From Candidatus Rifleibacteriota bacterium (lineage in GTDB: Bacteria > Muiribacteriota > Ozemobacteria > Ozemobacterales > Ozemobacteraceae): a stretch of 28,440 nucleotides of DNA. Under the pieces are notes generated by a model. The model made no database searches and was not told the origin of the DNA. It was given only the letters and a program-made list of their open reading frames with translations. The DNA lies in contig JANJUX010000012.1 in the NCBI GenBank assembly GCA_024710355.1, positions 64,001-92,440 of the forward strand. Direction: 5' to 3'. The position numbers were made by a program, and so were the translations under genes. Below, one piece after another: positions 184-18,890 of this stretch (the stretch's first letter is position 1; each line of letters opens with the position of its first letter).

Positions 184-2103
184 TCAGGTGCCGGAAAGAA
201 TCTTTCTGAAGAAGATCGCCTCTTTTTCGAGAGAATCGACGAGGTTGGCTTTCTGCCTGAATCCATGCGCTTCGGTGGGGTATTCGTAATATTCGTGCCG
301 GATGTGTTTGCTCGCGAGAATTTCGGCCATTTCGCGTGAATTCTCGGGCGGCACGACCTTGTCTTCTGAACCCTGGAAGATAATCATCGGACTTTTGAGG
401 TTAACGAGATGATTGATCGGCGACCGATCTTCGAAAATGTGGCGATGCGTGCTCATGGGCCCGCCGAGAAGTCCCTCAAGGTAACGCGATTCGAATTTGT
501 GGGTCAGATTCTGCAGGGTGACGAGATTGCCGATGCCGAAATAACTGGCGCCGGTGGCAAACATCTCAGGAAACATCGTAAGCAGTCGTTGTACCGTATA
601 GCCGCCGGCACTGCCGCCAGAAACCACAGCTTTGTCACCGATCATGCGCTTTTCGCGCAGGTATTGCAGACCGTCTTTGACGTCGCTGATCTCAAGAACT
701 CCCCATTCGCCAAGCAGTGCGTCACGATAGGCCCTGCCAAAACCGGTTGAACCGCGATAGTTAACGTCGAAAATCGCATAGCCCTGGCTGGTCCAGAAGA
801 CATGCTCGCGGCTGAAACCGGCTCGTGCCAGGCTGGTCGGGCCGCCGTGCACGAGAACCCTTACCGGCGGGAGCTCCCCTTCGGGAGTTTTGTAATTGCT
901 GTTTTTCGGGGGGTAGAAGTAACCGTGGCATAACTGGCCATCACTGGTTGGAAAGCTGATTTTTTCGGGGCTGCTGATGTCTGCAGCCGAAATATGGCAT
1001 TCTGATGTGTGCCGTAGAATTTCGAGACTGGCATTTTTCTTTATCAGGGCCAGCTGAGTTGGCCTGTCAGCGGGGGTTCCGGTCAGGGCTAGATTTTCGC
1101 CACATACGACTGGCTTCGATATCGACAGAAACGGCGTCGGCAGTTCGGTTAAACTGCCGCTTTCAGCGTCAACCCAGGCCAGACCAGGCATTCCGTCGTT
1201 GAATGTCAGGGCAAGAATCCTGTCTGCAACGTGCAGAATATAGGCAATCTCATGCCCGGCCGCTGTTATGCGCTTTGTAGAGCCATTGTGCCAGGTGTAA
1301 ATGTTGAAAAAATTATCGGTCGAATTCTGCCCGGCCCCTTTTCGGTCGATGCTGTAGCGTATTTCGCCGTTACTGTTGAAGGAAAAGTCGCTTATCGCTT
1401 CACTGTCTGAGCCGGCAATTCTGCACAGGGCCTTCTGGTTCACTTCGCCGTCGGCAAAGGGAGAGCAACAGAGAACCGTTGAATCCCAGGGCATATAGGG
1501 GTGATTCCATTGCAGCCAGGCGATATTTTTGCCGTCCGGCGAAAAAAACGGCTGTTTGTAAAAATCGGCACCGCACACCAGAATTTTGGGCTCCTGAATG
1601 CCAGGTTTTTGCAGGTCCAGAAGGCAGAGAGCGTTTTCTGGCTCATTGTGCCCGCCTTCAAGCTCAAAAGCTGCAACCAGCCAGCGGCCATCAGCAGACA
1701 CGGCTGGCTGCATGAACTTCATCATCCGGCCGTCGGCGGCCTTTTCGGGGGTAATGGGGGCCGGAGTTTCGCTTTTACCGAAATCAAAGGCATAAAGGCG
1801 CTGATCAGAGAAGTTGGCGAATATAACCCGGGTTTCAGTCGTGACGTAAGGCATGCCGCCGTATTCCATGACCCTGGTTCTCGCTGAAAAAGGCGCGGGC
1901 AGCAGTTCTTTGATTGTGCCGTCGGGAGTGCGCAGCATGATGACGCAGCGACCTTTCTCTTCGGGGCGCATTTCAACCCAGAACAGCCTGCCGGCCGCAT
2001 CGCCGGAGAGAAATGAAAAATTCACGGTTGCCTGAAAGACTTCTTCGGCGCTTATTGCCGGTTTCCAGGTGAGATATGACGCTGTGACTGGTGCGCTGTG
2101 CAT
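184..2103 (-). CDS. S9 family serine peptidase (dipeptidyl aminopeptidase / acylaminoacyl-peptidase type): N-terminal beta-propeller plus C-terminal alpha/beta hydrolase.
   Basis: Nucleophile elbow VVSGGSAGGYT (GxSxGG) with downstream D/H region (EYYEYPTEAHGF). The ORF track extends to 2280, but AAGGAGA sits 7 nt before the Met at 2103 (MHSAPV...). The longer N-terminus would overlap the upstream gene by 157 nt. Confidence 0.85.
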   Translation of the reverse strand: MHSAPVTASYLTWKPAISAEEVFQATVNFSFLSGDAAGRLFWVEMRPEEKGRCVIMLRTPDGTIKELLPAPFSARTRVMEYGGMPYVTTETRVIFANFSDQRLYAFDFGKSETPAPITPEKAADGRMMKFMQPAVSADGRWLVAAFELEGGHNEPENALCLLDLQKPGIQEPKILVCGADFYKQPFFSPDGKNIAWLQWNHPYMPWDSTVLCCSPFADGEVNQKALCRIAGSDSEAISDFSFNSNGEIRYSIDRKGAGQNSTDNFFNIYTWHNGSTKRITAAGHEIAYILHVADRILALTFNDGMPGLAWVDAESGSLTELPTPFLSISKPVVCGENLALTGTPADRPTQLALIKKNASLEILRHTSECHISAADISSPEKISFPTSDGQLCHGYFYPPKNSNYKTPEGELPPVRVLVHGGPTSLARAGFSREHVFWTSQGYAIFDVNYRGSTGFGRAYRDALLGEWGVLEISDVKDGLQYLREKRMIGDKAVVSGGSAGGYTVQRLLTMFPEMFATGASYFGIGNLVTLQNLTHKFESRYLEGLLGGPMSTHRHIFEDRSPINHLVNLKSPMIIFQGSEDKVVPPENSREMAEILASKHIRHEYYEYPTEAHGFRQKANLVDSLEKEAIFFRKILSGT

Positions 2104-2123
2104 TTGAATGTCTCCTTTGCCTG

Positions 2124-3143
2124 TCAGCTGTCTTTGCGGTTGAGAACGCACTGTGGGTCGTCGCCGAGCGGGTCGCCCGAAAGGGCCCGCGCCAGAGCCC
2201 GGCACCCAGGGCAGTCGTCGTATGGGCATGAGCCGCAGGCTATGCCATGCAGTTTTGGCCTTATGCGGCTGCATTCCCATTCTGCCAGCCGCAGTCTGAT
2301 TGCAGAGAATGGCTCATGCAGGATATTGCCGACCGGAATCTGCAGGCGGCGGCACGGAAAAACGGTGCCGTCTGGCATCAAAGCCATCGATTCATGCCCG
2401 AGATTGCATAAAGCGGCTTCAAGCATGTCTTCTGGTTCTGCTTTGCCATTGGTAACCAGGCCAAAAGCCCGGCATGCAGCCAGTTCGTCGGGGTCGATTT
2501 CGAGACCGGCAGCGGCGCCGATGCTTCTTATGGCTTTATACCAGTCATCTGCCGACAACAATGACTCTGAAATGTCCAGACCTGTGCCCAACGGTATGAA
2601 GCGCTCGAAGAGAATGTCGTCAGCGCCGGTTTCTCTGGCGAAGTCGACCGTTTCTTTTATCGTTTCACAGTTGAGGCGCGAGAGTGTCATCATCAGCGTC
2701 ACCGATTTGCCGGTGATTTCGCGGTAGAGTGGAATCGTGCGGCGCAGACCGCTCAATGAGCCGGTCCCGCGGATGAAATCGTTGATTTTTTCATCACCCG
2801 ATTCGAGAGAGATTCTGAATGATCGCAGACGCTGAAAACTGCCGAGTCTGGTCAAAAGCGCCCGGTCTTCGATGGTGCCGTTGGTGATGATATTTATTTC
2901 GGCGAGGTTTTCGTAGCTTTCAAGGTGAGCGATAAGGTCAGTCAGGTCAGGCAGAAGCAAGGGTTCGCCGCCGGTAAGATTGACGGTTACCGGTTCATTG
3001 GGGATCGCCGCCAGAACAGCATCTGCTGCCAGACGTCGTCTGTCTGCCCCGTCAGACAAACTCTCGCGTTCATGTGCATTTTGATAACAGTGCCGGCACC
3101 GGCGATTGCACAGATCGGTCAGATGCCACTGAAACCCAAACAT
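2124..3143 (-). CDS. Radical SAM enzyme with C-terminal SPASM/twitch-like Cys cluster (peptide-modifying maturase or anSME-like).
   Basis: N-terminal CNRRCRHC (Cx3Cx2C) at residues 12-19. C-terminal DGTVFPC and CGSCPYDDCPGC motifs are typical of SPASM auxiliary cluster ligands. The protein is 339 aa. The 20-nt gap to the peptidase gene contains an RBS, so the two are an operon. Confidence 0.85.
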   Translation of the reverse strand: MFGFQWHLTDLCNRRCRHCYQNAHERESLSDGADRRRLAADAVLAAIPNEPVTVNLTGGEPLLLPDLTDLIAHLESYENLAEINIITNGTIEDRALLTRLGSFQRLRSFRISLESGDEKINDFIRGTGSLSGLRRTIPLYREITGKSVTLMMTLSRLNCETIKETVDFARETGADDILFERFIPLGTGLDISESLLSADDWYKAIRSIGAAAGLEIDPDELAACRAFGLVTNGKAEPEDMLEAALCNLGHESMALMPDGTVFPCRRLQIPVGNILHEPFSAIRLRLAEWECSRIRPKLHGIACGSCPYDDCPGCRALARALSGDPLGDDPQCVLNRKDS

Positions 3144-3176
3144 TCAGTCACCACCAGATATGATAAAAAGGCCCGG

Positions 3177-3272
3177 TCAGGAACATAACACTTTAAGCGG
3201 TCTGCAACAAGCCATTTTCTGCCTGAACGGTGCCTTTGCGGGAATGGCCCGGAAGAATGACCGTGCCATCAT
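3177..3272 (-). CDS. Candidate small Cys-containing peptide (31 aa: MMARSFFRAIPAKAPFRQKMACCRPLKVLCS). It may be a precursor or substrate for the adjacent rSAM/SPASM enzyme.
   Basis: I translated this ORF by hand from the minus strand between the MFS stop (3283) and the rSAM start (3143). It falls below the six-frame track length cutoff. It has a basic N-terminal half and a C-terminal CC...C cluster. There is no convincing Shine-Dalgarno, so this is speculative. Confidence 0.25.
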   Translation of the reverse strand: MMARSFFRAIPAKAPFRQKMACCRPLKVLCS

Positions 3273-3282
3273 CGTGGCATAT

Positions 3283-4593
3283 TCAAGAATTATTGAGGTT
3301 TTCGGCAGCCTGCTTTTCTCTCTGGATACGGGCTCTGTTTGTCCAGGTGTGTGGCAGAAGCACGAGCATCAGCCAGCCGATCAGCATCAAAACGATAGCC
3401 AGACCAAATGCCGCCTGAAAAGCGGCTGTTTCTCTGGTGCCGTCAGGTGATACCCAGCCGATGATCAGGCCCATGACCCACATTCCGAGGCCGCCGCCGA
3501 CGAAACCGGTGAAATTGTAGACGCCGAGGGCGGTGCCGGCCATCGAGGCCGGAAAACACTCGCGTGCAATGCCGAAACTGATCGAAAAGAAGCCGGCGCA
3601 GAAACCCATAACCGCGAGCAGCGGAATCAGATAGCTCTGCATTGTTGAAGTGGCGAAAACCAGAGGTACCCAGCACAGCAGATAGCCGAACATTCCGGCT
3701 GTCAGAACCGTGTGGCGCCGCTGAACCGATTTCCCGGCCAGAATGCCGGAGACGATTGCCCCGAGCATCAGGCCAAGGGCAAGCCAGGTCAGGGCATAGC
3801 CGACCGATGTGTCTGGCATCTGATAGATGCGCTTGAGAAATGGGCCGGCCCAGAGGCCCTGAAAACTGATTATCGTGGTTTCGAAAGCGAAGAAGTAGAG
3901 AGTTACGGCCCAGAATCTTTTTGATTTGAGCATGCCGCGCAGGCCTGAACGCTCGCCCGGTTCCACTGTTTCGTCAGAGTCGTGGTGCTTTGCAGAACCG
4001 GCTTCTGGCCCACTTTCTTTTGGGCGTTCAGATTCTGGTGGCTGGTCTTTGACCACGAGCCAGACAAATATCACCAGAAGCAGGGTAATGACGCTGACGA
4101 GTTCCATCGTGGCCCGCCAGCCCCAGACGCTTTTTATTACAGCCAGCGGCCATGTCGAACTCAGTGCGCCAAGGTTGCCTACTGCCAGCATCATGCCGGT
4201 CATAAATACAAAAGATTCGCCGCCAAACCAGCAGCCCATAAGTCTGAGCGCCGGCACATAAACGCAGCCGACCCCGGCACCGACCAGCCAGCGCGATAGA
4301 ACCGCCGTTTCGAATGAAGCCGCCTTGCCGAAAGCAAAGGCGCCGAGGCTTGCCAGCAGCAGAAACAGTGATATGGTCTTGCGGGCACCCCAGCGGTCTG
4401 AAAGGATGCCGACCGGTATCTGTACCGTTGCATAGCCAAGCAGATACATCGATGAGAGAAAACCGAGTGCTGCCGGTTCAAGGCCAAGGTCGGCGGTGAG
4501 GTCGCCGGCCATTACCGCAGTGCAGAACCGATGAAACATGACAAAGAAATAGGCAATCGCCAGAACCCAGAATATGGCCCACTTTCTTGTCAT
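3283..4593 (-). CDS. Major facilitator superfamily transporter, 12-TM type.
   Basis: MFS motif A (GILSDRWGARKT), multiple hydrophobic helices and a central cytoplasmic loop rich in charged residues. RBS AAGGAAAG precedes the ATG. Confidence 0.85.
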   Translation of the reverse strand: MTRKWAIFWVLAIAYFFVMFHRFCTAVMAGDLTADLGLEPAALGFLSSMYLLGYATVQIPVGILSDRWGARKTISLFLLLASLGAFAFGKAASFETAVLSRWLVGAGVGCVYVPALRLMGCWFGGESFVFMTGMMLAVGNLGALSSTWPLAVIKSVWGWRATMELVSVITLLLVIFVWLVVKDQPPESERPKESGPEAGSAKHHDSDETVEPGERSGLRGMLKSKRFWAVTLYFFAFETTIISFQGLWAGPFLKRIYQMPDTSVGYALTWLALGLMLGAIVSGILAGKSVQRRHTVLTAGMFGYLLCWVPLVFATSTMQSYLIPLLAVMGFCAGFFSISFGIARECFPASMAGTALGVYNFTGFVGGGLGMWVMGLIIGWVSPDGTRETAAFQAAFGLAIVLMLIGWLMLVLLPHTWTNRARIQREKQAAENLNNS

Positions 4594-4744
4594 TGCGGCT
4601 TTCCTTGTTAATGTTCTCTTTACTTAAGCTTGCCTGTAAAGAAGCGTTTATGCAACTATTTTCTGATAGGACTGCCGGTTTTCCGCTTCGGGTATTTCTG
4701 TTACAATCGTCTGCATAATTTTGCTCAGACAGGGAAGAAATCTT

Positions 4745-5434
4745 ATGACCTTTTCATTATCGCCCAGAAAAAGTCTGAAAGTCGTGCTGTTGCTGGCAGT
4801 GCTTTTTCTCGTGCTGGCTGTTGAACCTCAGCCATTGCAGGCAGATGATATCGAGAAACAGATGCGCGAACTGCTCGCTGAGGCTGGCCCTTTCCCTGAG
4901 GCGGTTGCCAGGCCGCGCGACCCTGTAAACACTGAGCTGACGATTCGTGAAAGATTTAATCGTATCTGGAACAATTTTCTGGGCTTCAGGGTCACCTATG
5001 CGACCGCGAGAGGTAAAGCCTGCCACGCAAACCAGCGGGTAATCGCCGGTGCGATTGAAATGTACAACATGGATAACGCGACGATGATGAAAACATTGCG
5101 GCACGACGACGCCGTTATGGCCTCGGGAGCGCTGGTCAGGGGCCTTTACCTTAAGAATGGGATTCGCCCGCCTGAATCTGACTGTGAATATTTCAGTTTT
5201 GGTGATCTGACAAAAAATGGCATAGTTTATTGCCGGCGACATGGCACGATTGAACCGTATTATAAAGCCATAGCAAAGGTTGCTGGTGTTAAAATGCCTG
5301 TCGATGAGCGGGCAGAAAATCTTCAGATTGCTTTGGCCGGCATGGTCGGTCTGATTCTGATCTCAATGGCGGTTCTGATCGTTCTGTTTTTCAGTCGCCG
5401 CCAGTCGTCAGAGGCATCAGACGCAGATAAATAG
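4745..5434 (+). CDS. Secreted/membrane-anchored protein with a GspG-like (T2SS major pseudopilin) globular segment. It has an N-terminal Sec-type signal peptide and a C-terminal TM anchor.
   Basis: AIEMYNMDNATMMKT...GLYLKNGIRPPESDCEYFSFGD resembles the conserved GspG/PulG ALDMYKLDN...YPTT...DPWG..Y..FSLG region, from memory. The N-terminus (MTFSLSPRKSLKVVLLLAVLFLVLAV) is a classical signal peptide, not a prepilin G-FTLxE leader. The C-terminal hydrophobic stretch is IALAGMVGLILISMAVLIVLFF. The start was moved to the Met at 4745, which has GGGAAGAAA upstream. Confidence 0.55.
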   Translation: MTFSLSPRKSLKVVLLLAVLFLVLAVEPQPLQADDIEKQMRELLAEAGPFPEAVARPRDPVNTELTIRERFNRIWNNFLGFRVTYATARGKACHANQRVIAGAIEMYNMDNATMMKTLRHDDAVMASGALVRGLYLKNGIRPPESDCEYFSFGDLTKNGIVYCRRHGTIEPYYKAIAKVAGVKMPVDERAENLQIALAGMVGLILISMAVLIVLFFSRRQSSEASDADK

Positions 5435-5539: not shown

Positions 5540-6619
5540 ATGTCATGCTTTAAGCGGCAGTTAACCTGCTTTCGCCCGCGCAACAGCGGTTTCGTTTTTC
5601 CGCTGATTCTTTTTGCATCCCTGGCGGTCGGCCTGTTTATTCTGACGCTTACCCAGTATCAATCAGCGAATCGAGTCAAGCTTCAGCATCTCAACGACTA
5701 CCAGGGTGCATTTAACATCGCCTGGTCGGCACTTGTCGAAGTGCTGGCCGACATTCAGGCGAAGCAGTGGAGCAACCGTTCTTTTAAATCCGGGCCGAAA
5801 GACAAGTCTGCCAGCCTGTTCGGCGGCAGTTACAATCTCAGGGTGGCTGACCATGATGTGGCGCAGTATCTGTTCAATGTTAAAGTCAGGGTGAGCTTTA
5901 AAAACAAAAATCACCTGTTCTACTGGCGCATGAAATACAACCCGAATTTGCTCGATTTTACCAATCTTTTCATACCTGTCTGCTATGATGACATGCTCGA
6001 TGAGCCTGGTGCGGCGCCTGGCGATATCGATGCAATCGTCGATGATATGCTCGAAACCCGTGAAGAGAACCGTGAGAAGGCCGAAGAGATCGCCAAAGCC
6101 ATCAAAGCGACGCCGACTCTTAAGGAGGCACTGCAAAAAATCGGCATCAAACCCGACAAAGTCAAGGATGCCGACAAGCCAAGACCAGCGCCCCCAACGG
6201 TGCCGACTGCGCCGACTCCGCTGACGCTGAAAGATATCGCGGCCCTGGCTACCGGTGCTGACCCTGAAGTGGTCTTTGCAATCAAAGATTTTCATTTTGG
6301 TGGTGACGTCGCAGTGCTTACCGAAGAACAGAAAGACCTGCTCGACGCTATGGCTAAAATTCTTGCCGACCGGCCCGAGATTAAAATCGAGCTGCGTGGC
6401 CATACGACCGGTCTGGTTGGTACCGCCGAAAGCAATCTTGAATTCTCGATTCAGCGGGCACAGAACGTGGCCGACTATCTTATCAGTGTTGGTATTGCAT
6501 CTGAAAGGCTCACAGTTAAAGGTTTTGGTCGCGATAAACCGCTCGCCAGCAACGACACAGAGGCCGGTCAGACGAAAAACCGCCGCGTCGAATTCGTTCT
6601 TTCATCCACATCAAGTTAG
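5540..6619 (+). CDS. OmpA/MotB-like peptidoglycan-binding protein with N-terminal TM helix and Pro-rich linker.
   Basis: C-terminal OmpA-like domain (TAESNLEFSIQRAQNVADYL...GFGRDKPLASNDTEAGQTKNRRVEFVL). The linker is KPRPAPPTVPTAPTP, and the N-terminal hydrophobic helix is FVFPLILFASLAVGLFIL. Confidence 0.8.
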   Translation: MSCFKRQLTCFRPRNSGFVFPLILFASLAVGLFILTLTQYQSANRVKLQHLNDYQGAFNIAWSALVEVLADIQAKQWSNRSFKSGPKDKSASLFGGSYNLRVADHDVAQYLFNVKVRVSFKNKNHLFYWRMKYNPNLLDFTNLFIPVCYDDMLDEPGAAPGDIDAIVDDMLETREENREKAEEIAKAIKATPTLKEALQKIGIKPDKVKDADKPRPAPPTVPTAPTPLTLKDIAALATGADPEVVFAIKDFHFGGDVAVLTEEQKDLLDAMAKILADRPEIKIELRGHTTGLVGTAESNLEFSIQRAQNVADYLISVGIASERLTVKGFGRDKPLASNDTEAGQTKNRRVEFVLSSTSS

Positions 6620-6651
6620 TTACAGCCGCAGCGGAGTTTGGGTTACCGACT

Positions 6652-7224
6652 ATGAAAAATCGATCTGACAGAAGTTCTTTAACGGCCGCAAGTAGCGGTT
6701 TTACGGTATTGGAACTCGTGGTTGTCGTCGGCATAATGGCTCTGCTGGCGGCAATGGTATTCGGCATGTTTTCTACGACCAGTTCCAACCAGCAGAAGGT
6801 TTCGACCGACATGCAGATGCAGGCAATGATACTTAACTCGCAAAATCGCATCGTAAGAGCGGTCAGAGAAGGCATCGATTTTATTCTGCCCGAACTTGGT
6901 GAAGAGTCGGCTGCCCTCTTTTTTGCTGACAGTGAAAATAACATCAGGGTGCTCTATCAGCAGAAAGACGAAGAACTGTCAAAACGCACCGGCAAAACTT
7001 TGTACAAGCTCGTTCATCAAAAGGTTGAAACGAAAGGCTTTAATAGCAGCAGCCCGGCATCTGACCCGAAAATGTCGTCGACGGTTGCCGAGTATGTTAA
7101 AGACATCAAATTTCGCGTTTCAAGCGCCAATACGGTCAATGTTACCGCCAGTTTTGCGACCGAGCGCGCCGAATTTCAGACAATGTTCGAGATTGGCCTG
7201 CAGAATTCGGGAGTTGTTGAATGA
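6652..7224 (+). CDS. Prepilin-type N-terminal cleavage/methylation domain protein (pseudopilin / type IV pilin-like), 190 aa.
   Basis: Class III signal: charged leader, then G|FTVLELVVVVGIMALLAAMVF (G-F-T-x-x-E motif followed by a hydrophobic helix). Confidence 0.8.
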   Translation: MKNRSDRSSLTAASSGFTVLELVVVVGIMALLAAMVFGMFSTTSSNQQKVSTDMQMQAMILNSQNRIVRAVREGIDFILPELGEESAALFFADSENNIRVLYQQKDEELSKRTGKTLYKLVHQKVETKGFNSSSPASDPKMSSTVAEYVKDIKFRVSSANTVNVTASFATERAEFQTMFEIGLQNSGVVE

Positions 7225-8498
7225 ACCAGCGAGCAAACCGTGGTATGACACTGCTTGAACTGCTGATCGGCTTTTTTCTGCTGGTTTCGGCCTCGATTAT
7301 TTTTTTTCAGGCCATGCACAGCTTTAAAAAAGAAACCACCTTTACTTCGGAAAATTTCCTCGCGGCTTCTCTGACTGAAAAAGTGCTCGAGCAATGCTAC
7401 CAGGAGGCCGACCTGAACCCGCATGGCCTGCAGGCAATCGGTCTGGCCGATGCCGACGGCGCGCTCTACCCGTTTTCGACCTTTGTGACTGACAGAGAGA
7501 CAATTTTCTTTTCGAACCCGGGCATAACCGACACCGAAACCCCTAATCTACACAAGGTTCTCAAAGAAAATTTCAACCTCAAGGTGTCTGGTGAGAAGAA
7601 ACCCGGGTTTTATGAAATCAACGCCGGTTTTAACTGGAAAGCTGGTTCAGGCAAGGGCGGTTCGTTTGCCTCTACCCGTATTCTCTCGTTCACCGGCGAA
7701 AAGGAAGTGCTGACCACCTTCGCTTTGTCGGATACCGAGGTGAAAAACCGCCTGGTAAAAGATGTGTTCAACGCGCCCGGTGCCGCCCTCGGCAGCAAAG
7801 TCAGCAGTGCCGGTGCCGAAAAACTGCTGCTCAGCGTCGGGCATGTCTATTACACCTGCCTCGACTGGTTGAATTCTTCCGAGTTCAAAGACCGCTATCA
7901 GAAAGCCCGCAGCCTCGAAATTATTTCGTCACCTGCATCTGAAGACTATGCTGACTGCACCCGCATGTATTTTGAGCTCGCCAGAGACATGCTGCATCTT
8001 ATGATGAGTCTGAAAGGGCATGCAGAAGAGGCGGGCAAAGACATCAGCTTTCTTGCCGCCCTTCCGAAAACTGAGAAATACATCGTCGAGAGTCGTATCG
8101 AACGCGGTGGCCTGTTTTATCGCCAGCTGCGCCGTCTTTTCTTCAATTGCCTTTTCAGGGTTGCTGAGCGTTACGAGCAGCAGAGCAGGCATTCCGGGTC
8201 GCCAAAGCAACAGCGCCAGCTGATTGTGCGGCTGTTCAACATCAACCGGATTCTCTATGCCAATCGCAGCTTCAGCGATGAGGTTCCGGCAGCTGAGATC
8301 GAAAGCCGTTACCGCGATTTCATCACGAGAATGCAGACGGCGTTTCGTGATGCCGACCCTTCGATTTTTCGCCTTGCCGACCAGGAAAAGACGTTTATCA
8401 CCGCCGGCAATCTCAAAGACCGCTTTTTCATGTTGAAGTTGACCGGCGAGCTTTTTGCCACCATCGATAAATTTCTGACGGTTCTCGACCCGGCCTAA
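7221..8498 (+). CDS. Large prepilin-type N-terminal domain protein (minor pseudopilin-like), 425 aa.
   Basis: MNQRANRG|MTLLELLIGFFLLVSASIIFF matches the prepilin peptidase motif. Its start overlaps the upstream pseudopilin stop (ATGA), implying translational coupling. Confidence 0.75.
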   Translation: MNQRANRGMTLLELLIGFFLLVSASIIFFQAMHSFKKETTFTSENFLAASLTEKVLEQCYQEADLNPHGLQAIGLADADGALYPFSTFVTDRETIFFSNPGITDTETPNLHKVLKENFNLKVSGEKKPGFYEINAGFNWKAGSGKGGSFASTRILSFTGEKEVLTTFALSDTEVKNRLVKDVFNAPGAALGSKVSSAGAEKLLLSVGHVYYTCLDWLNSSEFKDRYQKARSLEIISSPASEDYADCTRMYFELARDMLHLMMSLKGHAEEAGKDISFLAALPKTEKYIVESRIERGGLFYRQLRRLFFNCLFRVAERYEQQSRHSGSPKQQRQLIVRLFNINRILYANRSFSDEVPAAEIESRYRDFITRMQTAFRDADPSIFRLADQEKTFITAGNLKDRFFMLKLTGELFATIDKFLTVLDPA

Positions 8499-14101: not shown

Positions 14102-14968
14102 TCAGTCTTCCCCGTTATCAACAGGGGATTCTGGAATCATTTCGTTGGCGGTATCGTCGTCGAATTCACTGGAAAAATCGAAAACGGCATCAGGAAAACG
14201 TTTTCGCAGCTCTTCCTGGTCTTTGAGCTTCAATGCCGCATTGCCCATGGCAATATTGAGGCCTTTCAGATTTTTAAGTGAATCAGGCAGTCTGGTACCG
14301 CCGTTGGAGTTGATTGTAAGGTTTTTCAGATTCTTAAGATTGCCGACAAACTCTGGCAGTTCTTTGATGCCGTTATAATCCAGATTCAGGGTGACAAGTT
14401 TTGCAAGAGAGGCAACCTGCGGCGGCACTTCATTGAGCCCGTTTCTGCCAATATCGAGAACTTCAAGATTTTGAAGAGCTCCCAGAGCCTGCGGCAGCTT
14501 TTTTGCCTTAACCGGTTCGCCTTTTTCGTTTTCCATAATACCCGAAGCGTCGAAAGCCCCGTAGAGACGCAGAATTTTCAGCTTCTCAAGACCGGCAATC
14601 GTTTCAGGCAGCGAGACATTCATCTGGTAGCCATTGCCGTTGTCGATAACGATGCTTTCAAGGTTCTTGAGATTGCCGAGTTCCTTTGGCAGTTCTTCCA
14701 GTGCTTCAAGGCCGCCGATATTCAGTTCTTTCAGATTGGTCAGGCTGCCAAAGGCTTCGGGCAAAAGTTTCAGAGAAAAGTCCGGGTTGTTTTCTTCGAC
14801 CGGTTCAGCCGCATCTTCCTGATATACTGCCCCAAGATCCAGTCTTGTAGCTTTTTCGGGGTTAGCCAGGGCCTCTGACAGATGTTTGTATGTTTCGGCC
14901 TGTGCTGAAACCGAAGAGCCGATTGCAAAAGCGATAAGCAGAGCACATACCTGTTTTAGTGAAGGCAT
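14102..14968 (-). CDS. Secreted leucine-rich repeat (LRR) protein.
   Basis: Signal peptide MPSLKQVCALLIAFAIGSSVSAQA. Repeated LxxLxxLxLxxN units follow (LTNLKELNIGG, LGNLKNLESIVIDNG, LQNLEVLDIGRNGL, LAKLVTLNLDYNGI, VGNLKNLKNLTINSNG). RBS AGGAG is present. Confidence 0.8.
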   Translation of the reverse strand: MPSLKQVCALLIAFAIGSSVSAQAETYKHLSEALANPEKATRLDLGAVYQEDAAEPVEENNPDFSLKLLPEAFGSLTNLKELNIGGLEALEELPKELGNLKNLESIVIDNGNGYQMNVSLPETIAGLEKLKILRLYGAFDASGIMENEKGEPVKAKKLPQALGALQNLEVLDIGRNGLNEVPPQVASLAKLVTLNLDYNGIKELPEFVGNLKNLKNLTINSNGGTRLPDSLKNLKGLNIAMGNAALKLKDQEELRKRFPDAVFDFSSEFDDDTANEMIPESPVDNGED

Positions 14969-14973
14969 GATAA

Positions 14974-15750
14974 TTACTCCTGATCGTTATAGGTTTTCCA
15001 ATATGGTTCCATGTCGATGCCGGCCGCTTTGCACGCAGATTCAAACACGTTCGCCTGGTCTCCGAGAACCATTTTTTCAATGATGGGGCCGGCTTCCATT
15101 GCGTTGGCGTCGGTTTCGTGGCCATTGGCGCGCCAGACCTGTTTGATCTGCTGTATGAGGGCGATTTTGCCGGCTTCGTCGAGGAGCTGCCAGTCGAAAA
15201 TATCTTTCGTCACAAGGTTTTTGACGTGCTCCTTGTCGAGTTTCGGGGCGTTGTCTGCCTTTTTGGCAGGTTCTGCCGCCGGTGCTTCAGAGCCTTCGAG
15301 CGGGTCGGTAATTGATTCGCAGATCATCGGGCCGGTACTGGCGTCATCGGCCGGCGAAATGCACATGAATACCGGTCCTGAGGGCTCTTTATATTTGAAC
15401 AGGATGCCTCTGGCATCGTCAGAAACCACGGTAGTCAGCGGCGATTGCAGCTGCAGGCCCTTGACCTGCCCAAAGCTCACCTGTGGCTGGCACACGGAAA
15501 ACACATTCGTGACCTTGTTATTTTCGTAGCCAAGCATTCCCATCATCAGAAAATCGGGAGAGTCTGAGATGAGCCAGGTGTCGAGCTCGCCTGCATCAGC
15601 TGGTTTGCCGAGCATTTTGTGAGCTTCTTCTCTGGAAACCCCAATAAAGCTGGTTTCGGTCCAGAATTTCGCCGTAATTGCTTCGGCACTGCCGGCTGCG
15701 ATAATTAACAGAACGAAGACGAGAATGATAATACTGTTGCGGTTTTTCAT
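14974..15750 (-). CDS. Hypothetical secreted protein (signal peptide, no known domain).
   Basis: MKNRNSIIILVFVLLIIAAGSAEA signal peptide. RBS AAGGAA. It lies 5 nt upstream of the LRR gene. Confidence 0.6.
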   Translation of the reverse strand: MKNRNSIIILVFVLLIIAAGSAEAITAKFWTETSFIGVSREEAHKMLGKPADAGELDTWLISDSPDFLMMGMLGYENNKVTNVFSVCQPQVSFGQVKGLQLQSPLTTVVSDDARGILFKYKEPSGPVFMCISPADDASTGPMICESITDPLEGSEAPAAEPAKKADNAPKLDKEHVKNLVTKDIFDWQLLDEAGKIALIQQIKQVWRANGHETDANAMEAGPIIEKMVLGDQANVFESACKAAGIDMEPYWKTYNDQE

Positions 15751-15755
15751 TGATT

Positions 15756-16400
15756 TTATTCCTTGTTATCTGTGGGAGTGGCTGATTCTGAGGCAACAGG
15801 TGTGGCTTCGTCGGCAACGATTTCGGTCGGAAGATATTCGACGAGAATGTGGCGTTCATCCTGAGCTTTGATCAAAGCTGAGAACTTACCGGCGACGCTT
15901 ACTTCTTCACCGGCTTTTTCCCATTCTGCGGGAGTTGCATGTACATCGGGCGTGCCACCTGAACCGGTGCTGTAAATGGTGCCGCTGGCTTTGAAGGTGT
16001 CACTGCCAATGTCTTCGAGCGTGTCGAGCTGTGAGAAAACAAACATATCGCCATCGGCAACCGGTATTGAATATAATTTTTCCTTGTGCTGCGAAGGCTT
16101 CTGCCCGAAGTATTTTATCGCTGCCGTGTCAACCTGCTCAGTGGTCGCCGTGACATAATACCCGTCTTTAGAGGGTTTCAGCGATTTGAATTTGTTGAGA
16201 TACAGGTGCCGAAGAGCAAAGTCGATCATCGCCTGGTCGGTCAACGCACCCTGCGAAAAGCTTGCCACATGGGCTTCAGAGAAGTTGCTGAAAAATACGT
16301 TCAGGTTCTTCTGCAGAGCCGGTTCGAGCTGCATCGGCTCTGCCAGACCCATCGAGGCCACGGTCATTATTACTGCCAGTAAAGTCAGGATTTTTCTCAT
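15756..16400 (-). CDS. Hypothetical secreted protein.
   Basis: MRKILTLLAVIMTVASMGLAEP signal peptide. RBS GGAGA. The gap to the next gene is 5 nt. Confidence 0.6.
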   Translation of the reverse strand: MRKILTLLAVIMTVASMGLAEPMQLEPALQKNLNVFFSNFSEAHVASFSQGALTDQAMIDFALRHLYLNKFKSLKPSKDGYYVTATTEQVDTAAIKYFGQKPSQHKEKLYSIPVADGDMFVFSQLDTLEDIGSDTFKASGTIYSTGSGGTPDVHATPAEWEKAGEEVSVAGKFSALIKAQDERHILVEYLPTEIVADEATPVASESATPTDNKE

Positions 16401-16438
16401 TGAATTCTCCGTTTCAGATCATACTGTAAAGGTTCTGA

Positions 16439-17008
16439 TCACTTCGCCGACAGCGGAACGATGGTGAAGGAATAGGCGGTATCTTCACCATCACCACCGG
16501 TTCGCAGCGTAAATTTCCAGCCCTGGTGTTCCCATACGGTGTTTTGGTAGCCTTCTTCTTTTTCGCCGTCTTTGCCGGCTCCGGCATTTTTTTCAAGCCA
16601 TGTCTGCAGTTCTTTGTTCGGAACTTCTTCGCCGTCGATGCAGATTTCGGCGATTTTACCGGCTTCGTCCCAGTCGATGATAAGGGCTACCGGAGCTGAT
16701 TCGGTTTCGATCTGGAAATCATACTGCAGTCTGCTCGCTTCTTCCATTTCGGCAGCTTCGCCGAGAATCGGCGTCAATTTGGCAGCCAGGTCATCGCGAG
16801 TGGCGTCTCTGCCGATGAAGACTTCGGTTCCCTTCAGCATCAGCGGAAATTCTGCCGTGGCGCTGGCGACATCAGCTGTGACTGCGGTTGTTGATGCAGT
16901 TTCTACTGCTGCGGCTGCGGCGGGTTTGACTTCGACTCCGGCAAAGCTCTGACAGGCTGCTGCCACGATGAATGCGAGAGCGACGGTTGTGAATCTGGTG
17001 TTGATCAT
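16439..17008 (-). CDS. Hypothetical secreted protein with an Ala/Thr-rich linker.
   Basis: MINTRFTTVALAFIVAAACQSFAG signal peptide. RBS TGGAGAAAAAAAT. Confidence 0.6.
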   Translation of the reverse strand: MINTRFTTVALAFIVAAACQSFAGVEVKPAAAAAVETASTTAVTADVASATAEFPLMLKGTEVFIGRDATRDDLAAKLTPILGEAAEMEEASRLQYDFQIETESAPVALIIDWDEAGKIAEICIDGEEVPNKELQTWLEKNAGAGKDGEKEEGYQNTVWEHQGWKFTLRTGGDGEDTAYSFTIVPLSAK

Positions 17009-17049: not shown

Positions 17050-17790
17050 TTATTGCTGCGCCGGGGTGAATTTGCCGCTGATCGCCATATAGCGGAAGTT
17101 CGGGCCTTCAAAGCCGGGGCTGGTGTAAGAAACGATCACGACAATGCCGTCTTTGCAGCTGGTTACCCGGCGAACCTGGTAAGAAAGCGGATAGGCGCGG
17201 CTTTTTGGCAGACGCTTGTCTTCCTGAAGAATCTGTATGGTCCCGGAAGCTTCTTCAAGACCGGCAATCGACAGTTTGAGCATTTTTGCCGGGCCAAAAT
17301 CAGTCGGCATATCTTTGATGGCAGGTGTTGTGTCAGTGGTTTCGAGCCTGACTTCATATTTTGCGGTGATACCTGAGGCTCCGCCATCGATGCCGGGCGT
17401 CAGAGAGAAAATATTGCCGGTAAATGGGCTGTGGTCGGTCGGCAGGTGTACCAGAAGGTCTGAACCCTGATTTTCATTGACTTTCAGTGCGAAGCGTTCG
17501 AGTCTGGCGGCTTCGATTGCTTTTTTGAGTGCCGGTTCGGCTGAGCCCGCCTCGATATCTTTGTCTTCGGTCAACTCGGTGGCGCTGGTGGCGACCTGCT
17601 CATTTTTCAGAACATCGATTACCCACAGTTCCGCATATGGAACCCCTGAGCCATCGTGGATACCCATCTGGGCAAAAGCGTAATACTGGCCTGATTGAGA
17701 GAAACCGAGCGGCCGGAATTCGGCAATATCGCCGGCCTGGCAGCTGGCAACAAAAAAGAACATGGCAAGGGTGACTAAAATGCGTTTCAT
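17050..17790 (-). CDS. Hypothetical secreted protein.
   Basis: MKRILVTLAMFFFVASCQAGD signal peptide. RBS AGGAGAAAATA precedes the Met at 17790. The track ORF extends to 17844 without an RBS. Confidence 0.6.
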   Translation of the reverse strand: MKRILVTLAMFFFVASCQAGDIAEFRPLGFSQSGQYYAFAQMGIHDGSGVPYAELWVIDVLKNEQVATSATELTEDKDIEAGSAEPALKKAIEAARLERFALKVNENQGSDLLVHLPTDHSPFTGNIFSLTPGIDGGASGITAKYEVRLETTDTTPAIKDMPTDFGPAKMLKLSIAGLEEASGTIQILQEDKRLPKSRAYPLSYQVRRVTSCKDGIVVIVSYTSPGFEGPNFRYMAISGKFTPAQQ

Positions 17791-17810
17791 TATTTTCTCC
17801 TGGGGTGTGA

Positions 17811-18500
17811 TTATTTTCCGGGTCTGAATTCGATCAGTCGGCAATTGACTTCGCTGGTGGTTCCCTGATGTGAATAGATGTAGCCGGTAAAACCGACGCC
17901 ATGGGTAAATTTCCAGGTGGTTGTGTCCGGGCCGGTAGACAGGCTGATCGAAACTTCGTCGGGAGTGCCGGTAAGCTTCAGACCTTTTACCGCTGCGGCA
18001 GAAAACGGTGTTTTGCCTTCAACCCGGTAAACATACATCGGAATGCCCGAAAGCAGCTGCGCAGTTTCGCCGAAGGTTTTTTCTTCTACCAGCGGAAAAT
18101 CGAGCAGCAGATCAGCTTCGGTAACCGATTCGCCCAGGCTCTCGCCGGTGATGGCCTTTTCCCAGACCTCTTTGATTCTCTCGTCGCCCTGAATCAGATA
18201 GAGCCGCCAGGGCCCGGCCAGAATCATCAGAAATGGTGACGGTTTTTTGCCTTTTTCATAAAAGGTCAGGTCGCTCGGCAGGCCAGAGCCTTTTGCAAAA
18301 GTAATGTTTTCCCAGGCGGTTACCGAGGTTATTTCGGTTGTCCAGGTGAGGGTTTCGCTCAGTTCTTTGCCTTCAGAATCGGCTTTGACGTCGGCGCTGT
18401 AGACCCATGCGGTGCCGGTTGCCAGCTGCAGCGGCAGGCTTTCGGCTGCCGTTACGGTGAGGGAAATAAGACAGAAAATGACAATAAGAGCGTGTTTCAT
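17811..18500 (-). CDS. Hypothetical secreted protein (first gene of the secreted-protein operon).
   Basis: MKHALIVIFCLISLTVTAAESL signal peptide begins at the internal Met at 18500, with AGGA upstream. The longer track ORF (to 18713) has no signal-peptide logic. Confidence 0.6.
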   Translation of the reverse strand: MKHALIVIFCLISLTVTAAESLPLQLATGTAWVYSADVKADSEGKELSETLTWTTEITSVTAWENITFAKGSGLPSDLTFYEKGKKPSPFLMILAGPWRLYLIQGDERIKEVWEKAITGESLGESVTEADLLLDFPLVEEKTFGETAQLLSGIPMYVYRVEGKTPFSAAAVKGLKLTGTPDEVSISLSTGPDTTTWKFTHGVGFTGYIYSHQGTTSEVNCRLIEFRPGK

Positions 18501-18890
18501 AGGTTTAATCCTGCTTTTGGAGTAATTGTCCTGGCGGTGTCCTGCTAAAAACCGGAAAACTGGCTGGTTTATTTTGTGTACCCTCTGATCCTCTCTAAGA
18601 TTATGAAAAATATCACAAACTTCGCAAAGGTTCAAGTTTTTGCTCTTTGACTTTTCAAAGCCAGTTCTGATGCGAATCGGAGCGGTCGATTTTTCGTGTA
18701 AAGCTCGTTGCAAAGCTTGGTCAGGCGCAGCGGCAATTTATGTCATGGTTAAGGGTGGCCCGGCGCTCTGTGCGTAAAAATCAGTTGGTGAATCATTGCC
18801 GATCTGATAGACTCAGGTTTCACATACGGGGCTGTAATTGCCTGGATTTTTTGTGGGAACCTGTATTTTCGAACAAAAGGGGACATAAAG

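Follow-up and report, generated by a model that had tools for sequence, protein, structure and literature searches.

A 28,440-nt stretch of DNA from a Candidatus Rifleibacteriota bacterium (contig JANJUX010000012.1, positions 64,001 to 92,440 of the forward strand; the whole stretch is called the window here) contains a gene at 4745..5434 on the + strand, stop codon included, which codes for a 229-amino-acid pilin-head protein with inverted anchoring, as seen from its reading frame, its homologues and its substitution pattern. In an earlier note this protein had been described as a GspG-like pseudopilin head placed between a Sec signal peptide and a C-terminal transmembrane helix. The analysis presented here points, with reasonable probability, to a paralogue of the major Riflebacteria type IV pilin head that is tethered to the membrane, does not polymerise and would act as a docking module in the periplasm. 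Homology of its core to pilin heads is supported by sequence comparison, with the phylum's own type IV pilin, and not GspG of the type II secretion system (T2SS), as the closest kin.

The pilin head comprises residues 81-170 (4985..5254, +), a conserved block of 90 residues which includes the core stretch AIEMYNMDN...CEYFSFGD. It is composed of alpha1-C (about residues 85-110), carrying NQRVIAGAIEMYNMD, two short helices, a YLK motif and a beta-hairpin (residues 149-152 and 160-163). In a profile search, the conserved core was recovered from 984 representative clusters with E<=1e-3, and 495 of these reach E<=1e-10. For the core alone, AlphaFold2 (AF2) predicted a long helix, a pair of shorter ones and a beta-hairpin, with a predicted local distance difference test score (pLDDT) of 90 and a predicted TM-score (pTM) of 0.82; with the family alignment, the core reached pLDDT values in the 90s and both hydrophobic ends of the protein were predicted to be helical. 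A globular head, with alpha1-C packed on an antiparallel beta-sheet and with homology to known pilin heads, has been identified.

The closest known relative of this head is a genuine prepilin. Residues 81-170 share 48% identity over 90 residues (E 3e-26) with residues 29-111 of a prepilin encoded at 5917-6264 of locus L082, so that the Riflebacteria type IV pilin, and not a protein of the GspG/PulG type, is the nearest relative. The prepilin matches Pfam N_methyl (1.9e-10), and its gene is located between those for a T2SSE+MshEN ATPase of the PilB type, a 353-amino-acid T2SSE ATPase of the PilT type and an A24 prepilin peptidase. Short prepilins with the pattern ...C.Y...G.I.C..HGT were also identified among the clusters of the profile search and among 306 genomic loci, the L082 protein being one of them. 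As a separate observation, large membrane proteins of the Sulfatase family (L082 3081-5831; L047 85-4304) are encoded next to the true Riflebacteria pilin gene; these are possibly pilin-modifying enzymes of the phospho-form or lipoteichoic-acid-synthase-like kind.

The likeness to GspG described in the earlier note is real but weak. Both cores are collinear (AvEMYnmDn versus ALDMYKLDN, and YLK..p..C.Y.s.GD versus GYIKRLPKDPWGNDYQYLSPGD), but the similarity is not significant when taken alone (E about 1): the target is not matched by the GspG profiles (T2SSG PF08334/TIGR01710), and the family profile A3 gave E 0.9-1.7 with GspG structures. A Foldseek search with the model, which had been suggested as a check against GspG/PulG, returned nothing significant, with TM-scores of 0.42-0.45 to EpsG and PulG. 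Similarity to GspG-like pilins is nevertheless present in the wider family, where relatives reach T2SSG at 3.5e-6 and one relative matches PulG in the PDB with E 0.001. Within the core copies of multi-copy relatives, matches to Pfam PilJ_Pilin (4e-10), T2SSG and DUF1559 were found; six relatives are matched by PilJ_Pilin and three multi-copy relatives by T2SSG.

The N-terminus of the target is MTFSLSPRKSLKVVLLLAVLFLVLAVEPQPLQADD, in which the G↓FxxxE motif is absent (the arrow marks a cleavage position). No match to N_methyl (Pfam, E<=0.01) or TIGR02532 (NCBIfam, E<=1) was obtained for the target, so that a class III signal peptide was not found. Instead, residues 1-33 (4745..4843, +; MTFSLSPRKSLK-VVLLLAVLFLVLAV-EPQPLQA↓DD) have the features of a Sec-type signal peptide for signal peptidase I (SPase I), as indicated by the hydrophobicity of the h-region and the conservation of the predicted cleavage site. 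Within M1-A33, the n-region is basic (+3; R8, K9, K12), the h-region V13-V26 consists of 14 residues with a mean Kyte-Doolittle value of 3.59, and L31-Q32-A33↓D34 comes after the helix-breaking residues P28 and P30. Of the 10 close homologues, most retain a small residue at -1 and an aliphatic one at -3 (L/V-x-A↓acidic); differing cleavage regions, rich in small residues nonetheless, are present in P0009 (SRPASSDE) and P0010 (CLPAAGNE). By its features, the N-terminus is shaped as a predicted SPase I signal peptide, and neither as a 20-residue anchor nor as a prepilin leader. This agrees with the view that an ordinary signal peptide replaces the prepilin helix. An internal stretch, LG↓FRVTY, was considered as a prepilin site and rejected: it aligns with the alpha1 residues NFRKAR of the true pilin, which form no cleavage site.

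It might be argued that the N-terminal segment is an uncleaved anchor. The protein would then form a helical hairpin, its two ends being cytoplasmic and its head part of a loop in the periplasm. Such a topology would be expected, before processing, for those relatives that combine a prepilin N-terminus with a C-terminal transmembrane helix. However, the h-region of just 14 residues, followed by P-x-P and the conserved L-x-A↓D site, makes this quite improbable for the target.

Residues 34-80 (4844..4984, +) form an N-terminal region which is specific for, and conserved in, the signal-peptide-type subfamily. It consists of a helix, the motif AGPfPEav.rP and the amphipathic helix ERFNRIWNNFLG, and takes the position of the hydrophobic alpha1-N of a pilin. 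The 47 residues preceding the head (DDIEKQMRELLAEAGPFPEAVARPRDPV...ERFNRIWNNFLG) are of polar or amphipathic character, and no hydrophobic window was found there, so that an alpha1-N was not identified. The region is kept in the target, P0002-P0011, P0034, P0035, P0043, P0047 and P0059, and also in P0072, P0076, P0107 and P0108. In the AF2 model, residues 41-50 have a pLDDT of 94, and residues 61-90 one of 59-65.

Residues 171-192 (5255..5320, +), behind the head, consist of a helix (PYYKAIAKVAG; AF2 helix 170-180, pLDDT about 89) and of a linker that leads to the membrane, and this region is conserved among close homologues. It is followed by the predicted C-terminal transmembrane helix LQIALAGMVGLILISMAVLIVLFF of 24 residues (L193-F216; 5321..5392, +), which was recognised from its hydrophobicity (2.83 on the Kyte-Doolittle scale in the best 19-residue window) and is contained in AF2 helix 185-222. 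The remaining 13 residues, 217-229 (SRRQSSEASDADK; 5393..5431, +), form the predicted cytoplasmic tail, with the basic cluster S-R-R-Q straight after the membrane helix. Such a cluster is retained in the homologues as RRQ, KRRK, RKKK or KKKKK, and a basic cluster at this place agrees with the positive-inside rule. The hydrophobic helix and short charged tail described in the earlier note were thus found again. Close homologues with a complete C-terminus possess the helix, and P0008 and P0036 stop without one. Both the cleavage of the signal peptide and the C-terminal membrane insertion were assigned by sequence heuristics, by which the target is predicted to be a Sec/SPase I protein whose anchor is of type I (N-out, C-in). 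Since both hydrophobic ends are conserved in the close homologues, these share the architecture, as it had been proposed to check.

A transmembrane helix with a basic cluster at the extreme C-terminus also recalls the tripartite sorting signals of the PEP-CTERM, LPXTG or GlyGly-CTERM style, in which case the head would be released or transferred to the surface after cleavage. VIT-VWA proteins, with which the head is combined in some relatives, often bear C-terminal sorting signals elsewhere. However, no shared motif precedes the helix in the paralogues (ENLQIAL, ETAFMIAG, KEFAVIG, SPLFPYIL), no NCBIfam sorting-signal model was matched at E<=1, and the tail is longer (13 amino acids) and partly acidic. 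A cleavable sorting signal was rejected on these grounds as very improbable.

Because a search for its two defining features, the class III signal peptide and alpha1-N, was negative, the target is placed outside the type IV pilin/pseudopilin class, although it is pilin-head-like. Established pilus structures show that a filament subunit requires alpha1-N and Glu5. Lacking the hydrophobic alpha1-N, Glu5 and a class III signal peptide, the target can neither serve as a substrate of the prepilin peptidase nor pack into the core of a filament, in line with the earlier view that the protein could not polymerise in the usual way. The topology had further been called unusual. It is, however, no one-off, as it recurs in roughly 50 of the 163 family representatives.

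For the tethered head, the following model is proposed. The protein would be exported by the Sec pathway, and the signal peptide would be cut after A33. A single C-terminal helix would then hold it in the inner membrane in N-out/C-in orientation, with the 13-residue tail in the cytoplasm. About 160 residues would be exposed to the periplasm, comprising an N-terminal helical cap, the head of about 90 residues and a short stalk. The periplasmic location fits, since genes for TolC-like OEP and OmpA-family proteins in these genomes are in agreement with a diderm envelope. The weakest step is the role itself, for which a docking or binding module in the periplasm is suggested. The face formed by N96, R98, E105, Y107, N108, D110 and Y135-K137, which is invariant in the family, might be kept for a common partner, and rapid change affects the alpha-beta loop as well as the flanks and anchor. 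The most obvious candidate for the partner would be a pilin or the pilus; a component of the envelope or of a transporter is equally possible.

The head probably contains one metal ion, most likely zinc, which would staple the fold, as judged from the conservation of four residues. Cys93 on alpha1-C (5021..5023, +), putative ligand 1, is a Cys in 202/202 aligned domain copies. Cys147 just ahead of the first strand (5183..5185, +), putative ligand 2, is a Cys in 195/202 copies, when a Cys at the same column or five columns earlier is counted; five of the seven exceptions have a nearby His (SHY/SSHY), and the two copies of P0122 have none. The putative ligands 3 and 4 are provided by the CxxH knuckle Cys163-Arg-Arg-His166 (5231..5242, +), of which the Cys is retained in 201 and the His in 200 of the 202 copies, with CxxC replacing CxxH in one domain copy. 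Exactly three Cys are present in 139/202 copies, and the number of Cys is odd in most. The resulting C/C(or H)/CxxH pattern suggests a Zn(Cys3His) staple formed by C93, C147, C163 and H166.

The head is not restricted to proteins of this kind. Among 163 proteins examined (147 top profile matches and 16 earlier matches, a set which is biased towards the query), at least six architectures were identified, and the Riflebacteria genomes carry several paralogues each. The head follows a class III motif in 5 proteins, and in two of these a C-terminal transmembrane helix is present as well; in about 20 proteins it follows a zinc ribbon and a transmembrane helix, and in 27 it is located immediately behind an N-terminal transmembrane helix. 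A signal-peptide-like N-terminus, the head and a C-terminal transmembrane helix are combined in 29 + 18 proteins, and tandem arrays of 2-4 head copies are present in 33. In proteins of more than 700 amino acids the head is part either of a VIT+VWA+head+transmembrane-helix arrangement or of polytopic proteins of roughly 1850 amino acids. Since it is present in VIT+VWA, polytopic, zinc-ribbon-anchored and tandem-array proteins, the head works outside filaments.

Further details of these groups were recorded. The members of the VIT/VWA group (P0097, P0120, P0133; L015, L021, L069 and others) have about 830-930 amino acids, with a signal peptide, VIT, VWA, the head and a C-terminal transmembrane helix. 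In the separate, conserved polytopic group of about 1850 amino acids, the head is located in a loop near residues 740-890. The zinc-ribbon group (for example P0048, P0056, P0062, P0065, P0067, P0071, P0075, P0077 and P0135) has a cytoplasmic zinc ribbon (Pfam DZR, Zn_Ribbon_1), followed by a transmembrane helix often ending in AAIAIPNF and then by the head; in P0071 and P0135, AFTFIEV or LTLIEL is retained behind a zinc-ribbon "leader" of 45-55 residues. A near-identical relative, L089, extends just left of the window start and contains at 2475-4703 an extracytoplasmic function (ECF) sigma-70 gene and genes for a 138-amino-acid protein with a single transmembrane helix and a 424-amino-acid protein with a signal peptide, the last of which bears, at residues 248-321, a diverged version of the pilin-head core (E 3e-13).

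A "doubly anchored" family of about 200 amino acids combines both kinds of termini, consisting of a true prepilin N-terminus (G↓F(T/S)xIEL), the head, a K/E-rich linker, a C-terminal transmembrane helix and a KKK tail. Its members, P0013, P0123, P0167-P0180, P0190 and the protein encoded at L090 7001-7633, are from AT-rich uncultured organisms, and no pilus genes were found near the L090 copy. A series from prepilin to prepilin with C-terminal transmembrane helix, and from there to signal peptide with C-terminal transmembrane helix, is plausible.

The breadth of these architectures could be taken to mean that the head is a generic envelope module, either a small, metal-stabilised scaffold or a ligand-binding domain of the periplasm, which serves as a transporter accessory or spacer and is unrelated to pili. 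The occurrence of the head in VIT-VWA proteins, polytopic giants, zinc-ribbon-anchored proteins and the protein of the ECF-sigma operon would agree with this, as would a paralogue group located behind AcrB+OEP in five genomes and the position of the target group near a major facilitator superfamily (MFS) gene, which was identified in the window, L008, L011, L001 and L005. However, the neighbourhoods are heterogeneous, the linkage to the MFS gene may be residual synteny, a tail of 13 residues offers no route for signalling, and a ligand is pointed to by nothing. This explanation is regarded as rather unlikely. The paralogue group itself, with signal peptide, head and C-terminal transmembrane helix, is encoded directly behind genes for an AcrB-type resistance-nodulation-division (RND) pump and a TolC-like OEP in five Riflebacteria genomes (L024, L033, L034, L039 and L041, at about 5700-6450 in each), with gaps of 15-285 nt.

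For the target, a direct connection to filaments was considered from its genomic surroundings. It is followed on the same strand by a cassette of three genes, the first of which codes for an OmpA_C-domain protein with an N-terminal transmembrane helix (5540-6619, +) and is separated from the target by 106 nt, with no terminator called between the two. The second gene (6652-7224, +) codes for a prepilin-like protein of 190 amino acids (SSG↓FTVLELVVV), and the third (7221-8498, +), which overlaps it by 4 nt, for a prepilin-like protein of 425 amino acids (RG↓MTLLELLIG). Besides the window, the cassette 5540-8498 was identified in the close relatives L008 and L088/L089. In L011/L003, which are syntenic in other respects, it is missing and the target adjoins an aldehyde dehydrogenase gene, so that the cassette behaves like an insertion/deletion unit. 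A conserved operon of the OmpA and pilin-like genes with the target was rejected, as these genes are absent from L011/L003 and also from L001 and L005. In these last two, the more distant orthologues are located behind a cNMP-binding/AAA_31/TPR gene.

On the basis of this arrangement, the protein might be the base or terminator of a filament: the tethered head would dock on a growing type IV pilus or on a neighbouring pilin-like filament, and would anchor it, stop it or set its length. The close, same-strand position upstream of the OmpA-domain and two prepilin-like genes would be in agreement with such a role, which would be comparable to that of the basal pilin of sortase pili, and relatives with both a full prepilin N-terminus and a C-terminal transmembrane helix (P0013, P0123, P0167-P0180) could join a filament while being tethered. 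The target itself, however, has no alpha1-N and no Glu5 and so cannot insert into the core of a filament, L011/L003, L001 and L005 are devoid of the cassette, and no genes for an assembly ATPase, platform protein, secretin or peptidase are located nearby. A base or terminator function is therefore held to be rather improbable.

Several observations also weigh against a pilus-derived docking module. Neither the target nor its core gave a threshold match in Pfam, NCBIfam or the PDB sequences, and the core had none in Pfam even at E<=10. Machinery of pili or the T2SS (ATPase, platform, secretin, peptidase) was not found in the 28-kb window, and no filament machinery adjoins the orthologues in L001, L003, L005 and L008-L012. 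No universal neighbour indicates a partner, as the contexts vary between an MFS gene, the cNMP/AAA_31/TPR gene and an RND pump. A thiolate-bound zinc site would, moreover, be unusual for the oxidising periplasm. A tethered paralogue of the pilin head is nevertheless the reading preferred here.

That the gene is real is shown by its homologues and its substitution pattern. The reading frame is intact over 229 codons, from the ATG at 4745 to the TAG at 5432-5434 on the + strand. From the homologue alignment this ATG is preferred to an upstream TTG at 4721, because the starts of the homologues fall within a few residues of it. A database call of 274 amino acids (P0001) would require a frame which, as read from the window sequence, is interrupted by a stop. 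By a word-indexed search 17 homologues were identified, 10 of which are full-length (E 1e-48 to 1e-144); the closest loci belong to metagenome-assembled genomes of Riflebacteria (Ozemobacteraceae), with flanking genes that are 88-97% identical. A second copy of the head domain was searched for in the window and was not found.

For the target, the ratio of nonsynonymous to synonymous substitutions (dN/dS, omega) is 0.22 and 0.28 relative to the two syntenic relatives L008 and L011, which identifies it as a translated gene under constraint (compared genes: window 4745-5434, L008 5767-6450, L011 5758-6438). In comparison to its surroundings, however, it evolves quickly. The dN of the target is 0.20 versus L008 and 0.35 versus L011, with values of 0.02-0.06 for the flanking genes in both comparisons and flanking omega values of 0.04-0.09 and 0.04-0.10, respectively, so that the dN of the target is roughly 3-18x that of the flanking genes. 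Purifying selection is concentrated on the head (omega 0.06-0.13), and the signal peptide and the anchor are relaxed (omega 0.3-0.8). The dS of the head is saturated (1.7-2.1), compared to 0.4-0.8 for the flanking genes. The alleles are mosaic: in the C-terminal segment P0004 and P0006 are 95% identical, compared to 50-54% elsewhere, and P0005 and P0006 share 91-93% identity in the N-terminal region and head, versus 64% in the C-terminal segment. The different nearest relatives of anchor segment and head suggest recombination among old alleles, and the mosaic looks like an old, recombining polymorphism and not like simple decay.

It is the N-terminal helix that defines a type IV pilin, with the head usually regarded as no more than the cargo of this helix. 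Here the head alone is under selection, on the opposite kind of membrane anchor, across hundreds of essentially unannotated clusters. A wider proposal, which is speculative and not very probable, is that the Riflebacteria and some AT-rich uncultured lineages have freed the head of their major type IV pilin as a general metal-stapled module of the periplasm, the tethered forms of which are either an unrecognised class of filament-interacting proteins or decoys for phages or toxins. If so, the tethered and doubly anchored forms could anchor type IV filaments at the base, terminate them or regulate their length, or could be, given their fast mosaic evolution, periplasmic decoys for phages and toxins that target pili. 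Should the tethered forms touch the pilus, they would provide a handle on the anchoring, termination and regulation of filaments at the base, for type IV pili as well as for T2SS pseudopili. Should they not, a filament subunit would have become a domain of general use in the periplasm, and its probable zinc staple is rare among pilins. In either case, the unnamed family merits its own profile model, to end its annotation as "hypothetical".

Some other parts of the window are described for completeness. On the - strand, 184-4593 contains in a row genes for an S9 prolyl-oligopeptidase-family protein, a radical SAM/SPASM protein and an MFS transporter, the first two open reading frames of which overlap by about 157 nt; this set resembles a peptide-maturation cluster like those for ribosomally synthesised and post-translationally modified peptides (RiPP-like). 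Further genes code for a leucine-rich-repeat protein (14102-14968, -) and a predicted secreted DUF2259 protein (17050-17844, -), which are located among several open reading frames without a family match (14974-17008, 17811-18713).

In comparison to known systems, the closest counterpart is the major type IV prepilin of the Riflebacteria, which is itself uncharacterised (L082 5917-6264, L038, L047, L068). Its head is of similar size and corresponds to that of the target over the whole length, including the signature NxRVxxGAxEMYNMD / YLK / C..Y / CxxHG. However, the prepilin has a class III signal peptide, Glu5 and alpha1-N, ends straight after the head and adjoins PilB, PilT and the A24 peptidase, whereas in the target a predicted Sec signal peptide is combined with a polar N-terminal region and a C-terminal transmembrane helix, with no such machinery nearby.

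For GspG/PulG/EpsG of the T2SS, structures of EpsG and PulG show that the GspG head is stabilised by a Ca2+ site in a loop near the C-terminus. The target differs from these proteins by the absence of the prepilin N-terminus, of a T2SSG/TIGR01710 match and of a T2SS operon, and has the Cys3His pattern instead. PilJ of Clostridioides difficile (PDB 4ixj; PF22473) is a genuine prepilin with a dual-pilin fold which enters pili; the target, in contrast, contains just one head, lacks a polymerisation helix and itself stays below the PilJ_Pilin model. A literature search returned nothing relevant on zinc in PilJ, on pili of the Riflebacteria or on pilin-like proteins with a C-terminal transmembrane helix. 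For ComGC_C (PF26697), precomputed matches exist on distant family members (P0012, P0016, P0189, P0192, P0199, P0201), the sole graded one of which (P0012) is faint; unlike the target, ComGC is a polymerising competence pilin.

A lineage-specific expansion or modular re-use of a pilin module is likewise known from the DUF1559 (SBP_bac_10) proteins of planctomycetes and from PilB of Streptococcus sanguinis, and the DUF1559 N-terminal region has a weak match to two members of the family described here. Both the DUF1559 proteins and S. sanguinis PilB keep the class III signal peptide and alpha1-N. In contrast to these, many members of the pilin-head family have lost both and carry their anchor at the opposite end.

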